Shown piece by piece: positions 1 through 57,767 of a stretch of 64,000 nt of DNA. Each line of letters opens with the position of its first letter. The stretch's first letter is position 1. Below the pieces are notes generated by a model, which searched no databases, was not told the DNA's origin, and saw nothing but the letters and a program-made list of their open reading frames with translations. The stretch comes from Escherichia coli (lineage in GTDB: Bacteria; Pseudomonadota; Gammaproteobacteria; Enterobacterales; Enterobacteriaceae), in the NCBI RefSeq assembly GCF_003334305.1, contig NZ_QOWS01000026.1. One strand, written 5' to 3'. The translations under genes were made by a program, and so were the position numbers.

Positions 1-639
1 CTTGCCGCTCAGTCGGCGCTTTTGCATCGTCCGCGTCCAGCTTTTCGATAACCCGGCGGCGGAGAGTAAACGGTGATATTGATCGTCATCAAACGGCATA
101 TGCCATGCGATGGCGGCAGCCTCCTGCACGGTCACATCGCTGACACGGGAAACCAACTCCAGCGGCGCGTCCGCAGACACTTTCCCTGGCGCTATCACGC
201 TATACAACCACCCCACCTTACCTGTGTTTTGCATCAACTGCGCTATATCGCTGATATCAAAATGGTAATTGAGTTTATAGCAAGGCGAGCGCGGCTGGCT
301 GACCTGAATTAATGCCTCTCCCCAGCGGAAAATATCGCCCATATAAACATTACTTTCCGTGAGACCGTCGGTTGAGAGATTTTCGCCAAACGCAGGCGCA
401 ACAAACAACTCCGCCTGTTCCGGAAATTCCCGCGCCCAGTAGAGATAATGCTCACGAGGATAATGACACAGCGCTCTGTCTGGTCCGCCGTGAACCTTTT
501 TCTCCGCCTGCTCGTCACCTTCCAGCCCCAGCTCCGTCAGCATCAACTCACCATCAACCTGGATTTTGGCAATTGCGCTGGGTTTGCCTTCGGGATAAGC
601 CTGAATCTTGCCTGTGTATACATCAACCGGATATCGCAT
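1..639 (-). CDS. yiiM: MOSC-domain protein YiiM, 5' part only (runs off window start)
   Basis: Minus-strand frame from ATG at 639 is open to position 1; translation begins MRYPVDVYTGKIQAYPEGKP, recognised as YiiM. Not in ORF track because it has no stop in window. Confidence 0.85.
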   Translation of the reverse strand, partial: MRYPVDVYTGKIQAYPEGKPSAIAKIQVDGELMLTELGLEGDEQAEKKVHGGPDRALCHYPREHYLYWAREFPEQAELFVAPAFGENLSTDGLTESNVYMGDIFRWGEALIQVSQPRSPCYKLNYHFDISDIAQLMQNTGKVGWLYSVIAPGKVSADAPLELVSRVSDVTVQEAAAIAWHMPFDDDQYHRLLSAAGLSKSWTRTMQKRRLSGK

Positions 640-8743: not shown

Positions 8744-8869
8744 GCCGGATGCGGCGCGAGCGCCTTATCCGGCCTACAGGTCGGCAACAGTTGTAGGCCT
8801 GATAAGACGCGACAGCGTCGCATCAGGCATTGATTGCCGGATGCGGCACGAGCGCCTTATCCGGCCTAC
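8744..8869. repeat. REP/BIME cluster (three REP units)
   Basis: gccggatgcggcgcgagcgccttatccggcctac at 8744..8777, an inverted copy at 8793..8828, and a third at 8836..8869. Confidence 0.85.
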
Positions 8870-17359: not shown

Positions 17360-20300
17360 ATGCAGGTCAGCAGAAGGCAGTTCTTTAAGATCTGCGCTGG
17401 CGGTATGGCAGGCACCACGGCAGCGGCACTGGGTTTTGCACCCAGCGTAGCGCTCGCGGAAACCCGGCAGTATAAACTGCTGCGCACCCGCGAAACCCGT
17501 AATACCTGCACCTATTGTTCCGTAGGCTGTGGGCTGTTGATGTACAGCCTCGGTGACGGAGCAAAAAACGCCAAAGCATCTATCTTCCATATCGAAGGCG
17601 ATCCGGATCACCCGGTCAACCGCGGTGCACTTTGTCCGAAAGGCGCTGGCCTGGTGGATTTCATCCACTCCGAAAGCCGTCTGAAGTTTCCGGAATACCG
17701 TGCGCCAGGTTCTGATAAATGGCAGCAAATCAGTTGGGAAGAGGCGTTTGATCGCATCGCCAAACTGATGAAAGAAGACCGCGATGCTAACTACATTGCG
17801 CAAAACGCCGAAGGCGTGACTGTTAACCGCTGGCTCTCCACCGGGATGCTGTGTGCTTCCGCGTCGAGTAACGAAACCGGCTATTTAACGCAAAAATTCT
17901 CCCGCGCGCTGGGTATGCTCGCGGTCGACAACCAGGCGCGTGTCTGACACGGACCAACGGTAGCAAGTCTTGCTCCAACATTTGGTCGCGGTGCGATGAC
18001 CAACCACTGGGTCGACATCAAGAACGCCAACCTCGTCGTGGTGATGGGCGGTAACGCCGCTGAAGCTCACCCGGTCGGGTTCCGCTGGGCGATGGAAGCC
18101 AAAATTCACAACGGCGCGAAGCTGATTGTGATCGATCCTCGCTTTACGCGTACGGCGGCGGTAGCTGACTACTATGCCCCTATTCGTTCCGGTACTGACA
18201 TTGCTTTCCTGTCAGGCGTATTGCTGTACCTGCTGAACAATGAAAAATTCAACCGCGAATACACCGAAGCCTATACCAACGCAAGCCTGATAGTGCGTGA
18301 GGATTACGGCTTTGAAGATGGCCTGTTCACCGGCTACGACGCGGAAAAACGCAAGTACGATAAATCCTCCTGGACTTATGAACTGGACGAAAACGGCTTC
18401 GCCAAACGCGATACCACGCTGCAACATCCGCGCTGCGTGTGGAACTTGCTGAAACAGCACGTTTCCCGCTACACGCCAGATGTGGTTGAAAACATCTGTG
18501 GTACGCCAAAAGACGCGTTCCTGAAAGTCTGCGAATACATCGCAGAAACCAGTGCTCACGATAAAACTGCCTCGTTCCTCTATGCCCTCGGCTGGACGCA
18601 ACACTCCGTTGGTGCGCAAAACATTCGTACGATGGCGATGATCCAGCTGCTGCTCGGCAATATGGGGATGGCCGGCGGCGGCGTTAACGCCCTGCGCGGT
18701 CACTCCAATATTCAGGGGCTGACGGACCTGGGGCTGCTGTCGCAGAGTCTGCCAGGTTACATGACGCTGCCAAGCGAGAAGCAGACCGATCTGCAAACCT
18801 ACCTTACCGCCAACACGCCAAAACCGCTGCTGGAAGGCCAGGTAAACTACTGGGGCAACTACCCGAAATTCTTCGTCTCTATGATGAAGGCCTTCTTTGG
18901 TGATAAAGCGACGGCGGAAAATAGCTGGGGCTTTGACTGGTTGCCGAAGTGGGATAAAGGCTACGACGTCCTGCAATACTTCGAGATGATGAAAGAAGGC
19001 AAGGTCAATGGCTATATCTGCCAGGGCTTTAACCCTGTTGCCTCATTCCCGAACAAAAACAAAGTGATCGGTTGTCTGTCGAAACTGAAGTTCCTCGTCA
19101 CCATCGACCCGCTGAACACTGAAACCTCTAACTTCTGGCAGAACCACGGTGAGCTGAACGAAGTTGACTCGTCGAAGATCCAGACCGAAGTGTTCCGTCT
19201 GCCATCGACCTGCTTCGCAGAAGAGAACGGTTCAATCGTTAACTCAGGTCGCTGGTTGCAGTGGCACTGGAAAGGTGCGGACGCCCCGGGGATTGCGCTG
19301 ACTGATGGCGAGATCCTCTCCGGTATCTTCCTGCGCTTGCGCAAGATGTATGCCGAACAGGGTGGCGCGAACCCGGACCAGGTGCTGAACATGACCTGGA
19401 ACTACGCCATTCCGCATGAGCCGAAGTCGGAAGAAGTAGCGATGGAGAGCAACGGTAAGGCGCTGGCCGATATTACCGATCCGGCAACCGGTGCGGTTAT
19501 CGTCAAGAAAGGCCAACAACTTAGCTCGTTCGCCCAATTGCGCGATGACGGTACAACCTCCTGTGGCTGCTGGATTTTCGCCGGTAGCTGGACGCCGGAA
19601 GGCAACCAGATGGCGCGTCGTGATAACGCCGATCCGTCTGGCCTCGGTAACACGCTGGGCTGGGCATGGGCATGGCCGCTTAACCGCCGCATTCTGTATA
19701 ACCGCGCCTCCGCAGATCCGCAGGGTAACCCGTGGGATCCGAAGCGTCAGTTGCTGAAATGGGACGGCACTAAGTGGACCGGCTGGGATATTCCGGACTA
19801 CAGCGCAGCGCCTCCGGGTAGCGGCGTCGGGCCGTTTATCATGCAGCAGGAAGGCATGGGGCGTCTGTTTGCCCTCGATAAGATGGCGGAAGGTCCGTTC
19901 CCGGAACACTACGAGCCGTTTGAAACGCCGCTGGGAACTAACCCGCTGCATCCAAACGTTATCTCGAACCCGGCTGCACGTATCTTTAAAGACGACGCCG
20001 AAGCATTGGGTAAAGCCGATAAGTTCCCGTATGTCGGAACCACCTATCGTCTGACCGAGCATTTCCACTACTGGACCAAACACGCGCTGTTGAACGCGAT
20101 TTTGCAACCAGAGCAGTTTGTGGAAATCGGGGAGTCGCTGGCGAATAAACTTGGCATTGCCCAGGGCGATACCGTGAAAGTCTCCTCCAACCGTGGCTAT
20201 ATCAAGGCCAAAGCGGTGGTGACCAAACGTATTCGTACACTGAAAGTGAACGGCAAAGATATCGATACCATCGGTATTCCGATTCACTGGGGCTATGAAG

Positions 20301-44291: not shown

Positions 44292-44455
44292 TGTTTAATC
44301 CTTTTGGTTTAAACCAGATGAAGCATCTTACGCTTACGCCAAAAAAGAAAGCAATTAACGGCGTATGACTTTGCAGATAATTGTGACAAAGCTCTCTATT
44401 GACGTAATCCCAGACTTATAAGGGAGATACTCGCATTGGTGTGCGCTCACGACAG

Positions 44456-44492
44456 GTAAAAAAAAACCTGCCAGCGATGGCAGGTTTTTTAT
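44456..44492 (-). terminator. typA (bipA) rho-independent terminator
   Basis: Stem cctgccagcgatggcagg flanked by A- and T-runs, 16 bp downstream of typA stop. Confidence 0.7.
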
Positions 44493-44507
44493 AACTAAAA
44501 AACGAAA

Positions 44508-46331
44508 TTAATCGTCTTTCGGTGCGCGGTTGGCGCGGCGACGATCGTTTTCCGTCAGGTGACGTTTACGAATACGGATAGAGGTCGGAGTCACTTCTAC
44601 TAGTTCGTCATCATCGATGAACTCCAGAGCTTGTTCCAGAGTCATGCGGATAGGCGGAACCAGAACAACGGCTTCGTCAGTACCGGAAGCACGCATGTTG
44701 GTCAGTTTCTTACCGGTCAGGCAGTTTACCGTCAGGTCGTTAGAGCGGCTATGAATACCGATAATCTGACCTTCGTAAACTTCTGCACCGTGACCGAGGA
44801 ACAGCTTACCGCGATCCTGCAGACCGAACAGCGCGAACGCGACCGCTTTACCCTGACCGTTAGAGATCAGTACGCCGTTCTGACGCTGACCCACTTCACC
44901 CGGACGTACGTCGTCGTAGTGGCTGAAGGTGGAGTACAGCAGACCAGTACCGGAAGTCATGGTCATGAACTCAGAACGGAAGCCAATCAGACCACGGCTT
45001 GGGATCACGTAGTCGAGACGTACGCGGCCTTTACCGTCTGGATTCATGTTTTTCAGGTCGCCTTTACGTTCGCCCAGCGCCTGCATTACAGAACCCTGAT
45101 GCTGTTCTTCAACGTCCAGAGTCACGTTTTCATATGGCTCTTGTTTACGACCGTCGATTTCACGGAAGATAACTTTCGGACGGGATACCGCCAGTTCGAA
45201 ACCTTCACGACGCATGTTTTCGATCAGAACAGACAGGTGTAGTTCGCCACGACCAGAAACGCGGAACGCATCAGCGTCTTCGGTTTCTTCTACGCGCAGC
45301 GCAACGTTGTGTACCAGTTCTTTGTTCAGACGATCCAGGATCTGACGAGACGTTACGAACTTACCTTCTTTACCGCAGAACGGCGAGGTGTTAACGCAGA
45401 AGAACATAGAAACGGTCGGCTCATCAACGGAGAGTGCCGGCAGCGCTTCAACGTTTTGCGTGTCGCAAACGGTGTCAGAAATGTTCAGTTCGCCAAGGCC
45501 CGTGATCGCAACGATATCGCCAGCTTCCGCCAGGTCGGTTTCGATACGTTCCAGACCGAGGTGGCCCAGCACTTTACCGACTTTCGCGTTGCGGGTTTTG
45601 CCTTCGCTATCGATGATAGTGACCTGCTGGTTCGGCTTCACTTTACCGCGCTTGATGCGGCCAATGCCGATAACGCCAACATAGCTGTTGTAATCGAGCT
45701 GAGAAATCTGCATCTGGAACGGACCGTCAAGGTCAACGTCCGGCGCAGGAACGTGGTCAACAATCGCCTGGTACAGCGGGGTCATGTCTTCCGCCATATC
45801 TTCGTGGTCCAGACCCGCGATACCGTTCAGCGCAGAAGCGTAAACGATCGGGAAGTCCAACTGCTCGTCGGTCGCGTCGAGGTTAACGAACAGATCGAAT
45901 ACCTGATCCACAACCCAATCAGGACGCGCGCCAGGGCGGTCAACTTTGTTGATAACAACAATCGGCTTCAGGCCGTAAGCAAACGCTTTTTTGGTTACGA
46001 AGCGCGTTTGCGGCATCGGGCCGTCAAATGCGTCAACCACCAGCAGCACTGAGTCTACCATGGACATTACACGTTCAACTTCACCACCGAAGTCGGCGTG
46101 CCCCGGGGTATCAACGATGTTGATACGGTAATCATTCCATTTGATAGCGGTGTTTTTCGCGAGGATGGTAATCCCACGCTCTTTCTCCAAATCGTTGGAG
46201 TCCATCACGCGCTCTTGGGTTTCGGCACGAGAGTCGAACGTACCGGATTGTTGGAGCAGCTTGTCTACCAGGGTGGTTTTACCATGGTCTACGTGCGCGA
46301 TGATGGCGATATTACGCAATTTTTCGATCAC
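44508..46331 (-). CDS. typA: Ribosome-associated translational GTPase BipA/TypA
   Basis: 607 aa ORF (M)[25 protein letters not shown]...; first codon is GTG at 46331. Confidence 0.96.
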
Positions 46332-46482
46332 AACTTTGCCTCAGGCATTAGAAATAGCGCGTTATTGTACACGGATTAATCGCACTACAAAACAGGATCA
46401 CAAACATCCTCCGCAAACAAGTATTGCAGAGTCCCTTTGTGATCGCTTTCACGGAGCATAAAAAGGGTTATCCAAAGGTCAT

Positions 46483-46573
46483 TGCACCAACATGGTGCTT
46501 AATGTTTCCATTGAAGCACTATATTGGTGCAACATTCACATCGTGGTGCAGCCCTTTTGCACGATGGTGCGCA
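46483..46573. promoter_or_regulatory. NtrC enhancer-like sites upstream of glnA
   Basis: Repeated TGCACCA/TGGTGCA dyads: tgcaccaacatggtgc (46483..46498), gcactatattggtgca (46516..46531), tggtgcagcccttttgcacgatggtgcgca (46544..46573). Confidence 0.6.
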
Positions 46574-53385: not shown

Positions 53386-53451
53386 AATGGTTCGTCTTTT
53401 AGCCGTTTTATTCAGTATAGATTTGCGGCGGAATCTAACAGAAAGCAAGCA

Positions 53452-53696
53452 AAGAAAAAAGGCGACAGATTACTCTGTCGCCTTTTTTCCTGACTCATAA
53501 CCCTTAACGGGTCTTACAATCCTTGCAGGCCGCCAACACACCCTGTTTTTCCTTTAGCCGGAACAATCCGTGTTGATTCCATTTCCGTTTAATTACGTCT
53601 CCGGACGTTTGTCTTCCTGACAATCCTCTGTCTTCGCCTCCTGGCGCTCCTGACCCTCATCCTGAGTCATTGTTCCTGTTAGCGTCCTCGCTCTAT
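53452..53696 (-). ncRNA. csrC: CsrC small RNA (CsrA-sequestering)
   Basis: Minus-strand region dense in GGA/AGGA motifs ending in the hairpin ggcgacagagtaatctgtcgcc plus U-tract, 67 bp upstream of yihI; ends are approximate. Confidence 0.75.
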
Positions 53697-53966: not shown

Positions 53967-54599
53967 TTGACTAATTTGAATTATCAACAGACGCATTTTG
54001 TGATGAGTGCGCCTGATATTCGCCACCTACCTTCCGATACCGGAATTGAAGTGGCTTTTGCAGGCCGTTCCAACGCAGGTAAATCCAGCGCGCTGAACAC
54101 GCTGACTAACCAGAAAAGCCTGGCTCGTACCTCAAAAACCCCAGGGCGCACCCAGCTTATCAACCTGTTTGAAGTGGCTGACGGCAAGCGTCTGGTTGAC
54201 TTGCCTGGGTACGGTTATGCGGAAGTCCCGGAAGAGATGAAGCGCAAATGGCAGCGTGCGCTCGGCGAATACCTCGAAAAACGTCAGAGCCTGCAAGGTC
54301 TGGTGGTGCTAATGGATATTCGCCATCCGCTGAAAGATTTGGATCAGCAGATGATTGAGTGGGCGGTAGACAGCAATATCGCCGTTCTGGTGCTGCTGAC
54401 CAAAGCGGACAAACTGGCAAGCGGCGCACGTAAAGCGCAATTGAATATGGTGCGTGAAGCTGTACTGGCGTTTAACGGTGATGTGCAGGTTGAAACGTTT
54501 TCTTCGTTGAAGAAACAAGGCGTGGACAAGCTGCGGCAGAAACTGGATACCTGGTTTAGCGAGATGCAGCCTGTAGAAGAAACGCAGGACGGCGAATAA
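53967..54599 (+). CDS. engB: Ribosome biogenesis GTPase EngB (YihA)
   Basis: 210 aa ORF (M)[21 protein letters not shown]...GRSNAGKSS...; first codon is TTG at 53967 with GGAG 8 nt upstream; the ATG at 54003 is an alternative. Confidence 0.9.
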
Positions 54600-54620
54600 T
54601 TTTCTTGCCTTAATGCTTGT

Positions 54621-54699
54621 GCCGGATGTGGCGTATCCGGCCCGTAAATTCAATAGATTACAATTCTACCGTTGGCCTGATAAACATAGCGCATCAGGC
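54621..54699. repeat. REP-like palindromic units
   Basis: gccggatgtggcgtatccggc and ggcctgataaacatagcgcatcaggc. Confidence 0.5.
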
Positions 54700-54724
54700 A
54701 TTACGGATCTTTTCTTTCGCCCAA

Positions 54725-54833
54725 TAAAAAACGCCCCAGTCATTACTGACTGGGGCGGCTAAAATATTCAGCCAAATCCGATTACGTGAAGTAAAAGGTC
54801 TGAAAGATAGAACATCTTACCTCTGTACCCTAC
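54725..54833 (-). ncRNA. spf: Spot 42 small RNA
   Basis: Minus-strand sequence GTAGGGTACAGAGGTAAGATGTTCTATCTTTCAGACC...GCCGCCCCAGTCAGTAATGACTGGGGCGTTTTTTATT matches Spot 42 including its terminator; lies between engB and polA as in K-12. Confidence 0.88.
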
Positions 54834-54980
54834 GCGACTAACTTTACTCTTTTTTGTTCAGTTCAGAAAGCACTTTTTGTAATTTTTTTTCAGTTGTTGC
54901 ATAGGAATTTCTAATAGCCATCACAAAACGTGACAGCTTATGTTGCTTACTTACGAAAAAAGGGCATGTTCAGGCGAATC

Positions 54981-57767
54981 TTAGTGCGCCTGATCCCAGT
55001 TTTCGCCACTCCCCACTTCCACCAGCAACGGCACATCCAGACGGGTACAGTTTTCCATCAGTTGATGAATCTGCTTCGCGACGGCATCAACATCATCTTT
55101 ATGAACTTCAAATACCAGTTCATCGTGTACCTGCATGATCATACGTACACGCGGTTGCTCAGCCTGTAACCACGCATCAACGGCAATCATCGCCCGTTTG
55201 ATAATGTCGGCGGCGGTTCCCTGCATTGGCGCGTTAATGGCTGCACGTTCAGCCGCTGCACGACGAGCACCATTGCTGGATTTGATATCCGGCAGATACA
55301 GACGGCGTCCGTCCAGCGTTTCAACGTAGCCCTGCTCTTTCGCCTGAGCACGGGTGCGTTCCATATACTCCAGCACGCCAGGGTAGCGTTCGAAGTAAAG
55401 GTCCATGTACTTCTGCGCTTCTTTACGTGGAATGTTCAATTGCCGCGCCAGACCGAAAGCACTCATGCCATAAATCAGACCAAAGTTGATCGCTTTCGCG
55501 CTACGGCGTTGCTCGCTGGTGACGGTTTCCAGTGGCAAACCAAACACTTCTGCCGCCGTTGCCCGGTGGATATCTTTTCCTTCCGCGAATGCGGTCAGCA
55601 AGCCTTTGTCACGCGAGAGATGCGCCATAATGCGCAGTTCAATCTGCGAGTAGTCCGCTGAGACAATCACATAATCCTCTGGCGCAATAAACGCCTGGCG
55701 GATACGACGACCTTCTTCATTACGCACCGGAATGTTTTGCAGGTTAGGATCGGTTGACGATAAACGTCCCGTTGCAGTTACTGCCTGGTGATAAGAGGTA
55801 TGCACACGCCCGGTTTTCGGGTTGATCATCAGCGGCAGCTTGTCGGTGTAAGTCGACTTTAGCTTCGCCAGACCACGATACTCCAGAATCACTTTTGGCA
55901 ACGGATAGTCCAGCGCCAGTTCTTCCAGTACCTCTTCCGACGTTGACGGCGCGCCACCCGGCGTTTTCTTCAGCGGTTTAATGCCCTGTTTTTCAAACAG
56001 AATGGTTTGTAACTGCTTGGTGGAAGAAAGGTTAAATTCCTCACCTGCAATTTCATGCGCTTTCTTTTCCAGCTCAGCCAGACGAAGGGTGAGCTCTTCA
56101 GAATGATTGTGCAGCACTTTCGGATCGATCTTCACACCGTTACGTTCAATGCGTGAAAGCACCGGCACCAGCGGCATTTCGATATTCTCGAAGACGTTCA
56201 ACGGCCCTTTGTGTTTTTGCAGATCTGGCCACATTTTCAGATGCAACTGCAAGGTGACATCTGCATCTTCGGCGGCGTAACGTCCGGCTTCTTCGAGGGC
56301 AATCTGGTTAAAGGTCAGTTGATTTTTGCCTTTACCCGCAATCTCTTCAAAAGTGATGGTTTTGTGCTTCAACCAACGTTCCGCGAGGCTGTCCATATCG
56401 TGACGCCCGGCAACGCTATTGAGAATGTAGGACTCCAGCATGGTATCAAACGCAATCCCACGCAGCTCAATGCCGTAATTCGCCAGAATACCGCGATCGT
56501 ATTTCAGGTTTTGCCCGACCTTCAGCGCCTTTTCATCTTCCAGCAGCGGTTTTAGCAACTCGAGTGCACGCTCGCGAGAGATTTGATCGGGCGCGTCAAG
56601 ATAATCATGAGCAACCGGAATATATGCCGCTACGCCTGGCTCGATAGCAAAAGAAAGCCCGACCAGGTTAGCAGAGATGTTATCAAGGCTGTCGGTTTCG
56701 GTATCAAATGCAAATACCGGCGCTTTTTCCAGCTTCGCAATCCACGCTTTCAGTGTTTCTTCATCAAGGATGGTGACGTAGTTGTCATAAGAAATCACCG
56801 TTGCCGTCACTTCTGGTGCTTCGTCTGCAACACTGGTTTCCTGTGGCTTCGCGGCTGGTTTTGCCCCTTTGGCCTGTAACCATTTGCCCGCTTCGACATC
56901 AGCAGTCCAGCGTTTGAACTCATACTTTTTGAACAGCCCCAACAACTCTTCCGCTGCCGGTTGCTGCACTTCCAGTTGTTCACAGGTCAGCTCCAGTTCA
57001 ACGTCGGTTTTAATCGTCGCCAGCTGGTATGAGAGATAAGCAACTTCTTTGTTTTGCTCGAGCTTCGCTGCCATTGTTTTCGCGCCACGGAAGCTCAACC
57101 CAGCAATTTTTTCTGGCTCGGCATACAGCGTATCCAGCCCGCCCAGACCTTGCAGCAATGCCTGCGCGGTTTTTTCACCGACGCCCGGTACGCCAGGAAT
57201 GTTATCGGAGGAGTCACCCATCAGCGCCAGGAAATCGATGATCAGTTCTGGCGGCACGCCGTACTTATTCACCACCTCTTCCGGTCCGAGGATGGTATTC
57301 GTCATGGTATTGATAAGCGTAATATTTGGCGTCACCAGCTGCGCCATATCTTTATCGCCAGTGCTGATCAGCACCGGACGCCCGGCTTTTTCGGCTTCGC
57401 GCGCCAGAGTACCGATAACGTCGTCCGCTTCTACGCCAGAAACCGCCAGCAGCGGCAGTCCCATCGCTTTAACCATCGCGTGCAGGGGTTCGATTTGTGC
57501 TCGCAGATCGTTCGGCATTGGCGGGCGATGTGATTTGTAATGTTCAAACAGTTCATCACGAAAGGTTTTTCCCTTGGCGTCAAAGACCACCGCTGCATGC
57601 GTCGGTTTATATTGCATGATCAGACTGCGCAGCATGTTGAGGACACCATACATCGCACCGGTCGGCTCGCCTGCGCTGTTAGTCAGCGGGGGAAACGCGT
57701 GATATGCGCGATAAAGATAAGATGAACCATCTACAAGGATAAGTGGATTTTGGGGGATCTGAACCAT
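54981..57767 (-). CDS. polA: DNA polymerase I
   Basis: 928 aa [45 protein letters not shown]... Confidence 0.98.

Follow-up and report, generated by a model that had tools for sequence, protein, structure and literature searches.

The stretch of DNA analysed here, 64,000 nt in length and referred to below as the window, carries on its minus strand, at positions 54725-54833, an intact and ordinary Escherichia coli spf gene for the 109-nt Spot 42 RNA, a reading to which we assign a probability of about 0.98. Spot 42 is a textbook small RNA (sRNA) of catabolite repression, first described in the 1970s and regarded since 2022 as a model dual-function RNA. The gene is already known and is identical to that of the laboratory reference strain, so that nothing about it is new here; its identification matters only as correct annotation and adds no new biology.

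A scan of the whole 64-kb window with Rfam 15 (cmscan, run at gathering thresholds) returned a match to the Spot_42 family (RF00021) at 54725-54843 on the minus strand, with a score of 122.8 bits (E = 3.6e-24) against a gathering score of 80. The match covers model positions 1-115 of 115, with all consensus helices formed, and because the first 10 nt of the model precede the transcription start (+1), the mature 109-nt RNA runs from 54833 down to 54725. The minus-strand sequence of this interval is GUAGGGUACAGAGGUAAGAUGUUCUAUCUUUCAGACCUUUUACUUCACGUAAUCGGAUUUGGCUGAAUAUUUUAGCCGCCCCAGUCAGUAAUGACUGGGGCGUUUUUUA. The original prediction had placed Spot 42 on this strand at precisely these coordinates, naming an Rfam scan and an alignment to K-12 spf as its checks; the former recovered the family at full length and the latter proved 100% identical over the RNA. 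The RNA can be divided into the following parts.

54725..54833, minus strand: spf, the 109-nt Spot 42 RNA, +1 at 54833 (Rfam RF00021, identity to K-12 b3864, fold)
54786..54833, minus strand: stem-loop 1, RNA nt 1-48 (MFE and centroid structures; helix as in the Rfam consensus)
54774..54785, minus strand: single-stranded linker UAAUCGGAUUUG, RNA nt 49-60 (unpaired in the MFE and centroid structures and in the Rfam consensus)
RNA nt 61-77, minus strand: stem-loop 2 (fold)
54725..54757, minus strand: intrinsic terminator, formed by a hairpin at 54757-54732 and a U-tract (terminator scan, inverted repeat, Rfam consensus helix)

When folded, the 109-mer adopts three hairpins with a free energy of -40.6 kcal/mol (z = -5.08), a stability reached by none of 200 dinucleotide shuffles. 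The terminator hairpin consists of 11 pairs, 8 of them G-C, closed by a 4-nt loop and followed by TTTTTTATTG, and the corresponding inverted repeat (I1) is 100% complementary. A three-hairpin architecture with a Rho-independent terminator and U-tail, as known for the Spot 42 family, is therefore what the sequence presents, and the terminator that had also been predicted is borne out by the 11-bp hairpin and its U-tract. The linker at nt 49-60 is one that we take to be among the unstructured target-pairing regions of Spot 42, as reportedly assigned by Beisel and Storz (2011). The legend to Fig. 1B of PMC8916003 designates the single-stranded regions of the RNA as its base-pairing regions.

Comparison with E. 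coli K-12 MG1655 leads to the same identification. In that strain spf (b3864) is annotated at 4049899-4050009, that is, as a gene of 111 nt, the RefSeq feature including two extra bases of the U-tract and hence corresponding to 54723-54833 of the window; all 111 of these nucleotides are identical. The gene order in K-12 is polA, spf on the same strand, then the convergent yihA, followed by csrC, yihI and hemN. The same neighbours surround spf in the window, with polA upstream and yihA and csrC downstream.

54981..57767, minus strand: polA (DNA polymerase I), a 928-aa ORF differing from K-12 in 1 aa (ORF, annotation)
53967..54599, plus strand: yihA/engB (ribosome-biogenesis GTPase), a 210-aa ORF with 0 differences from K-12 YihA
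53443..53696, minus strand: CsrC sRNA, beyond yihA (Rfam RF00084, 278.7 bits, full length)

The polA stop codon lies 147 nt before the spf +1 and on the same strand, and the stop of the convergent yihA/engB is 125 nt away from the 3' end of spf, so that the gene does sit in the polA-engB gap to which it had been assigned, within the canonical polA - spf - yihA - csrC synteny. The CsrC gene itself is identical to K-12 csrC over 246 nt. The region and K-12 are collinear over 5.7 kb (99.67% identity), and this collinearity, together with the correspondence of the polA-spf-yihA-csrC region, shows that the window is a segment of the E. coli chromosome, inverted relative to K-12 numbering and derived from a strain other than MG1655. 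The spf gene described here is accordingly a chromosomal copy from such a strain. The spacer of about 400 bp between polA and yihA (alignment of 54590-54995, minus strand) equals that of K-12 except for one 1-bp indel, and the differences from MG1655 come down to an extra C in the polA-spf portion of the spacer and the single amino acid change in PolA, both of which leave spf, its -10 element and its CRP site untouched. The extra C is located at about 54963, in a minus-strand run GCCC 16 nt past the polA stop (alignment column 32), and represents the version common to many other E. coli strains, as judged from 100% matches.

The region upstream of the RNA is likewise shared with K-12 and contains two elements relevant to transcription.

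54841..54846, minus strand: candidate sigma-70 -10 hexamer TAAAGT, positions -13 to -8 (hand placement and K-12 identity)
54907..54928, minus strand: cAMP-CRP operator TTTTGTGATGGCTATTAGAAAT (equal to the published 22-mer; same in K-12)

A potential sigma-70 -10 element is mentioned for spf in the legend to Fig. 1A of PMC8916003. A generic consensus scan of 54550-55050 found no full -35/-10 sigma-70 promoter, and no convincing -35 for spf could be recognised upstream of TAAAGT; the negative scan fits a weak -35 and lends no independent support to the spf promoter. As for the operator, its 22-mer (54928-54907) is the E. coli spf CRP site given in PMC3295665, which cites Polayes et al. 1988, and its centre lies about 84.5 bp upstream of the spf +1. 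The core, TGTGA-N6-TTAGA at 54925-54910, shows 2 mismatches to the consensus TGTGAN6TCACA. Matches to this consensus with at most 3 mismatches are not enriched in the 64-kb window (186 observed, 219 expected), and those with at most 2 mismatches number 28 in the same 64 kb, for which reasons a CRP-like core would by itself be weak evidence; the site at spf carries weight because it is identical to an experimentally defined operator.

It could be argued that the stretch is only the polA 3' UTR with its terminator, the resemblance to Spot 42 stemming from shared terminator sequence. The same-strand position of polA just upstream and the want of a full sigma-70 promoter in the consensus scan are in line with such a view, as is the fact that the terminator scan of 54550-55050 detected no terminator-like site other than that of spf, which is thus the sole one between the polA stop and yihA; polA read-through transcripts consequently probably end there. 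However, the Rfam match is not confined to the terminator but takes in the 5' stem-loop and the linker, spanning all 115 model positions, and the sequence is that of a gene for which a +1 has been mapped and which has a -10 element and a CRP operator defined by experiment. Since both the Rfam match and the identity to K-12 cover the entire RNA and its promoter region, the 3' UTR explanation was rejected, its probability being close to nil. Serving as a terminator for polA is in any case compatible with the presence of the spf gene, as it constitutes an additional role and not an alternative one.

The one point absent from the original prediction is the dual function now known for the RNA, whose coding capacity was recognised in 2022. 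The K-12 annotation also places within spf a gene for a 15-aa product, spfP (b4837, "dual-function small protein SpfP"), and its K-12 coordinates (RNA position 19) were used to set the reading frame in the window.

54768..54815, minus strand: spfP, 15 codons followed by a TGA stop, MFYLSDLLLHVIGFG (translation equal to K-12 b4837)
54820..54823, minus strand: Shine-Dalgarno motif GAGG, preceding the spfP AUG by 4 nt (sequence GAGGTAAGATG at 54823-54813)

The ORF is intact and identical to that of K-12, with the histidine at position 10 present. A frame at 54769-54816 on the minus strand, which yields DVLSFRPFTSRNRIWL, was discarded as being one base off the K-12 spfP frame. In the MFE structure both GAGG and the spfP AUG (54815) are base-paired within stem-loop 1. 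A Shine-Dalgarno sequence with an AUG after it is described for Spot 42 in PMC8916003. In the same study, synthesis and function of SpfP were demonstrated in K-12, the protein being made especially at elevated temperature, and SpfP was found to co-purify with CRP and to block CRP-dependent activation at some promoters, such as galE P1, with His10 being critical for this activity as judged from the phenotype of an H10A mutant (PMC8916003). Because the ORF overlaps the base-pairing regions of Spot 42, translation and pairing compete, and at high temperature translation interferes with base pairing (PMC8916003).

One could also imagine that in this particular strain the locus has kept a single activity, acting only as SpfP mRNA or only as non-coding RNA. 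Early work did conclude against an mRNA role for Spot 42, as cited in PMC8916003 and PMC3295665, and there is no specific support for a loss. Against it, the RNA and the ORF correspond base for base to those of K-12, where both activities were demonstrated. At the level of sequence, the loss of one activity, coding or non-coding, is excluded, and we consider it hardly credible, no more so than the 3' UTR explanation.

We return therefore to the spf gene as an ordinary and complete one. All the sequence determinants of the K-12 Spot 42 and SpfP activities are present here unchanged and, since the gene is identical to that of K-12, it should work as described for that strain (the mechanism outlined below is drawn from PMC8916003 and PMC3295665). 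In this scenario, spf would be transcribed from its own promoter, starting at 54833 on the minus strand, and transcription would end at its own intrinsic terminator to give the 109-nt RNA. Transcription is expected to be high in glucose, with cAMP-CRP acting as a repressor from the upstream operator. The RNA would bind Hfq and, through its single-stranded regions, probably pair with mRNAs at their translation-initiation regions, the targets being transcripts for taking up and catabolising non-preferred carbon sources; that the K-12 RNA binds Hfq and base-pairs with its targets, galK and others, is stated in the introduction of PMC8916003. The first target found was galK, the repression of which would lead to discordant expression of the gal operon. 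In catabolite repression, Spot 42 and CRP would together make up a multi-output feed-forward loop. The transcript would double as a very small mRNA, with spfP presumably translated mainly at higher temperature, and SpfP would in turn bind CRP, in such a way that RNA and peptide jointly reinforce the CRP/Spot 42 feed-forward loop. For the gene in the window, CRP repression, Hfq dependence, the set of targets and the translation and activity of SpfP are thus likely properties, extrapolated from the K-12 work on an identical sequence.

A few minor departures from this picture may be conceived. The extra C past the polA stop, or polA read-through, might give rise to 5'-extended Spot 42 isoforms with altered regulation or activity; alternatively, two REP-like hairpins might alter 3' end formation or the convergent transcription with yihA. 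The data give no hint of effects of either kind, and even when taken jointly they are very improbable, if slightly less so than each of the two explanations discussed above. Nothing in the sequence argues against the spf identity. The hairpins in question, both short REP-like palindromes (GCCGGAT-N7-ATCCGGC at 54621-54641, GCCTGAT-N11-ATCAGGC at 54675-54699), lie within the 125-nt gap that separates the yihA stop from the 3' end of spf. K-12 has identical palindromes, and its feature table holds no repeat feature for them.

The gene is distributed throughout the species. Of 5426 complete E. coli genomes, 5425 were found to carry the 111-nt spf sequence, in a single copy each and, in 5424 of them, with at least 99% identity; the remaining complete genome (1/5426) showed no spf match at all. 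A 391-bp stretch around the RNA is equally present in 5425/5426 complete genomes and is 100% identical in many E. coli chromosomes. Two of the 5425 spf matches fell on records labelled as plasmid. Beyond E. coli, spf is reported from numerous genera of enterobacteria and from the whole of the Vibrionaceae, in the same polA-spf-yihA/engB arrangement (PMC3295665).

No annotated feature underlies spf in 8 of the 12 RefSeq E. coli records sampled, nor in one further record that was fetched; judging from these 12, most RefSeq E. coli records leave the position unannotated. Recovering spf and spfP by a scan thus fills a real annotation gap, which does not amount to a discovery. The neighbouring csrC offers an observation of its own: its counterpart in the RefSeq record of strain E2865 contains an annotated pseudogene, a frameshifted "hypothetical protein" (L002 4821-4987), which is probably a spurious CDS call.

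Among other known systems, a close parallel is provided by Spot 42 of the Vibrionaceae (e.g., the spf of Aliivibrio salmonicida), which belongs to the same family, lies within the same polA-spf-yihA/engB synteny and likewise displays glucose/cAMP-dependent expression (PMC3295665). In vibrios, however, conservation of the CRP site is only weak and the same intergenic region also houses a second sRNA gene, VSsrna24 (PMC3295665), whereas in E. coli and in the window the next sRNA, CsrC, is found beyond yihA. Other transcripts that both base-pair and encode a small protein acting in the same carbon-metabolism pathway include SgrS/SgrT and VcdRP/VcdP of Vibrio cholerae, as described in PMC8916003 and PMC8672173. 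Their sequences are unrelated to Spot 42, which differs from them in that its own ORF overlaps the pairing regions (PMC8916003).

The Rfam scan of the window also returned several matches away from the spf locus. An REP/BIME-derived nucleoid-associated RNA, naRNA4, was matched at 8796-8866 on the minus strand with 73.3 bits, and STnc370 was matched at 44455-44523, also on the minus strand, with 54.9 bits, a score barely over its gathering score of 54. A SECIS_3 selenocysteine insertion element was recognised at 17942-18000 on the plus strand (84.3 bits); its extrapolated position would fit, as we assume, the formate dehydrogenase-O gene fdoG. Finally, a full-length match to the ES222 sRNA, with 135.3 bits, is located at 46413-46520 on the minus strand and, if the K-12 offset is extrapolated, would presumably fall between glnA and typA/bipA.
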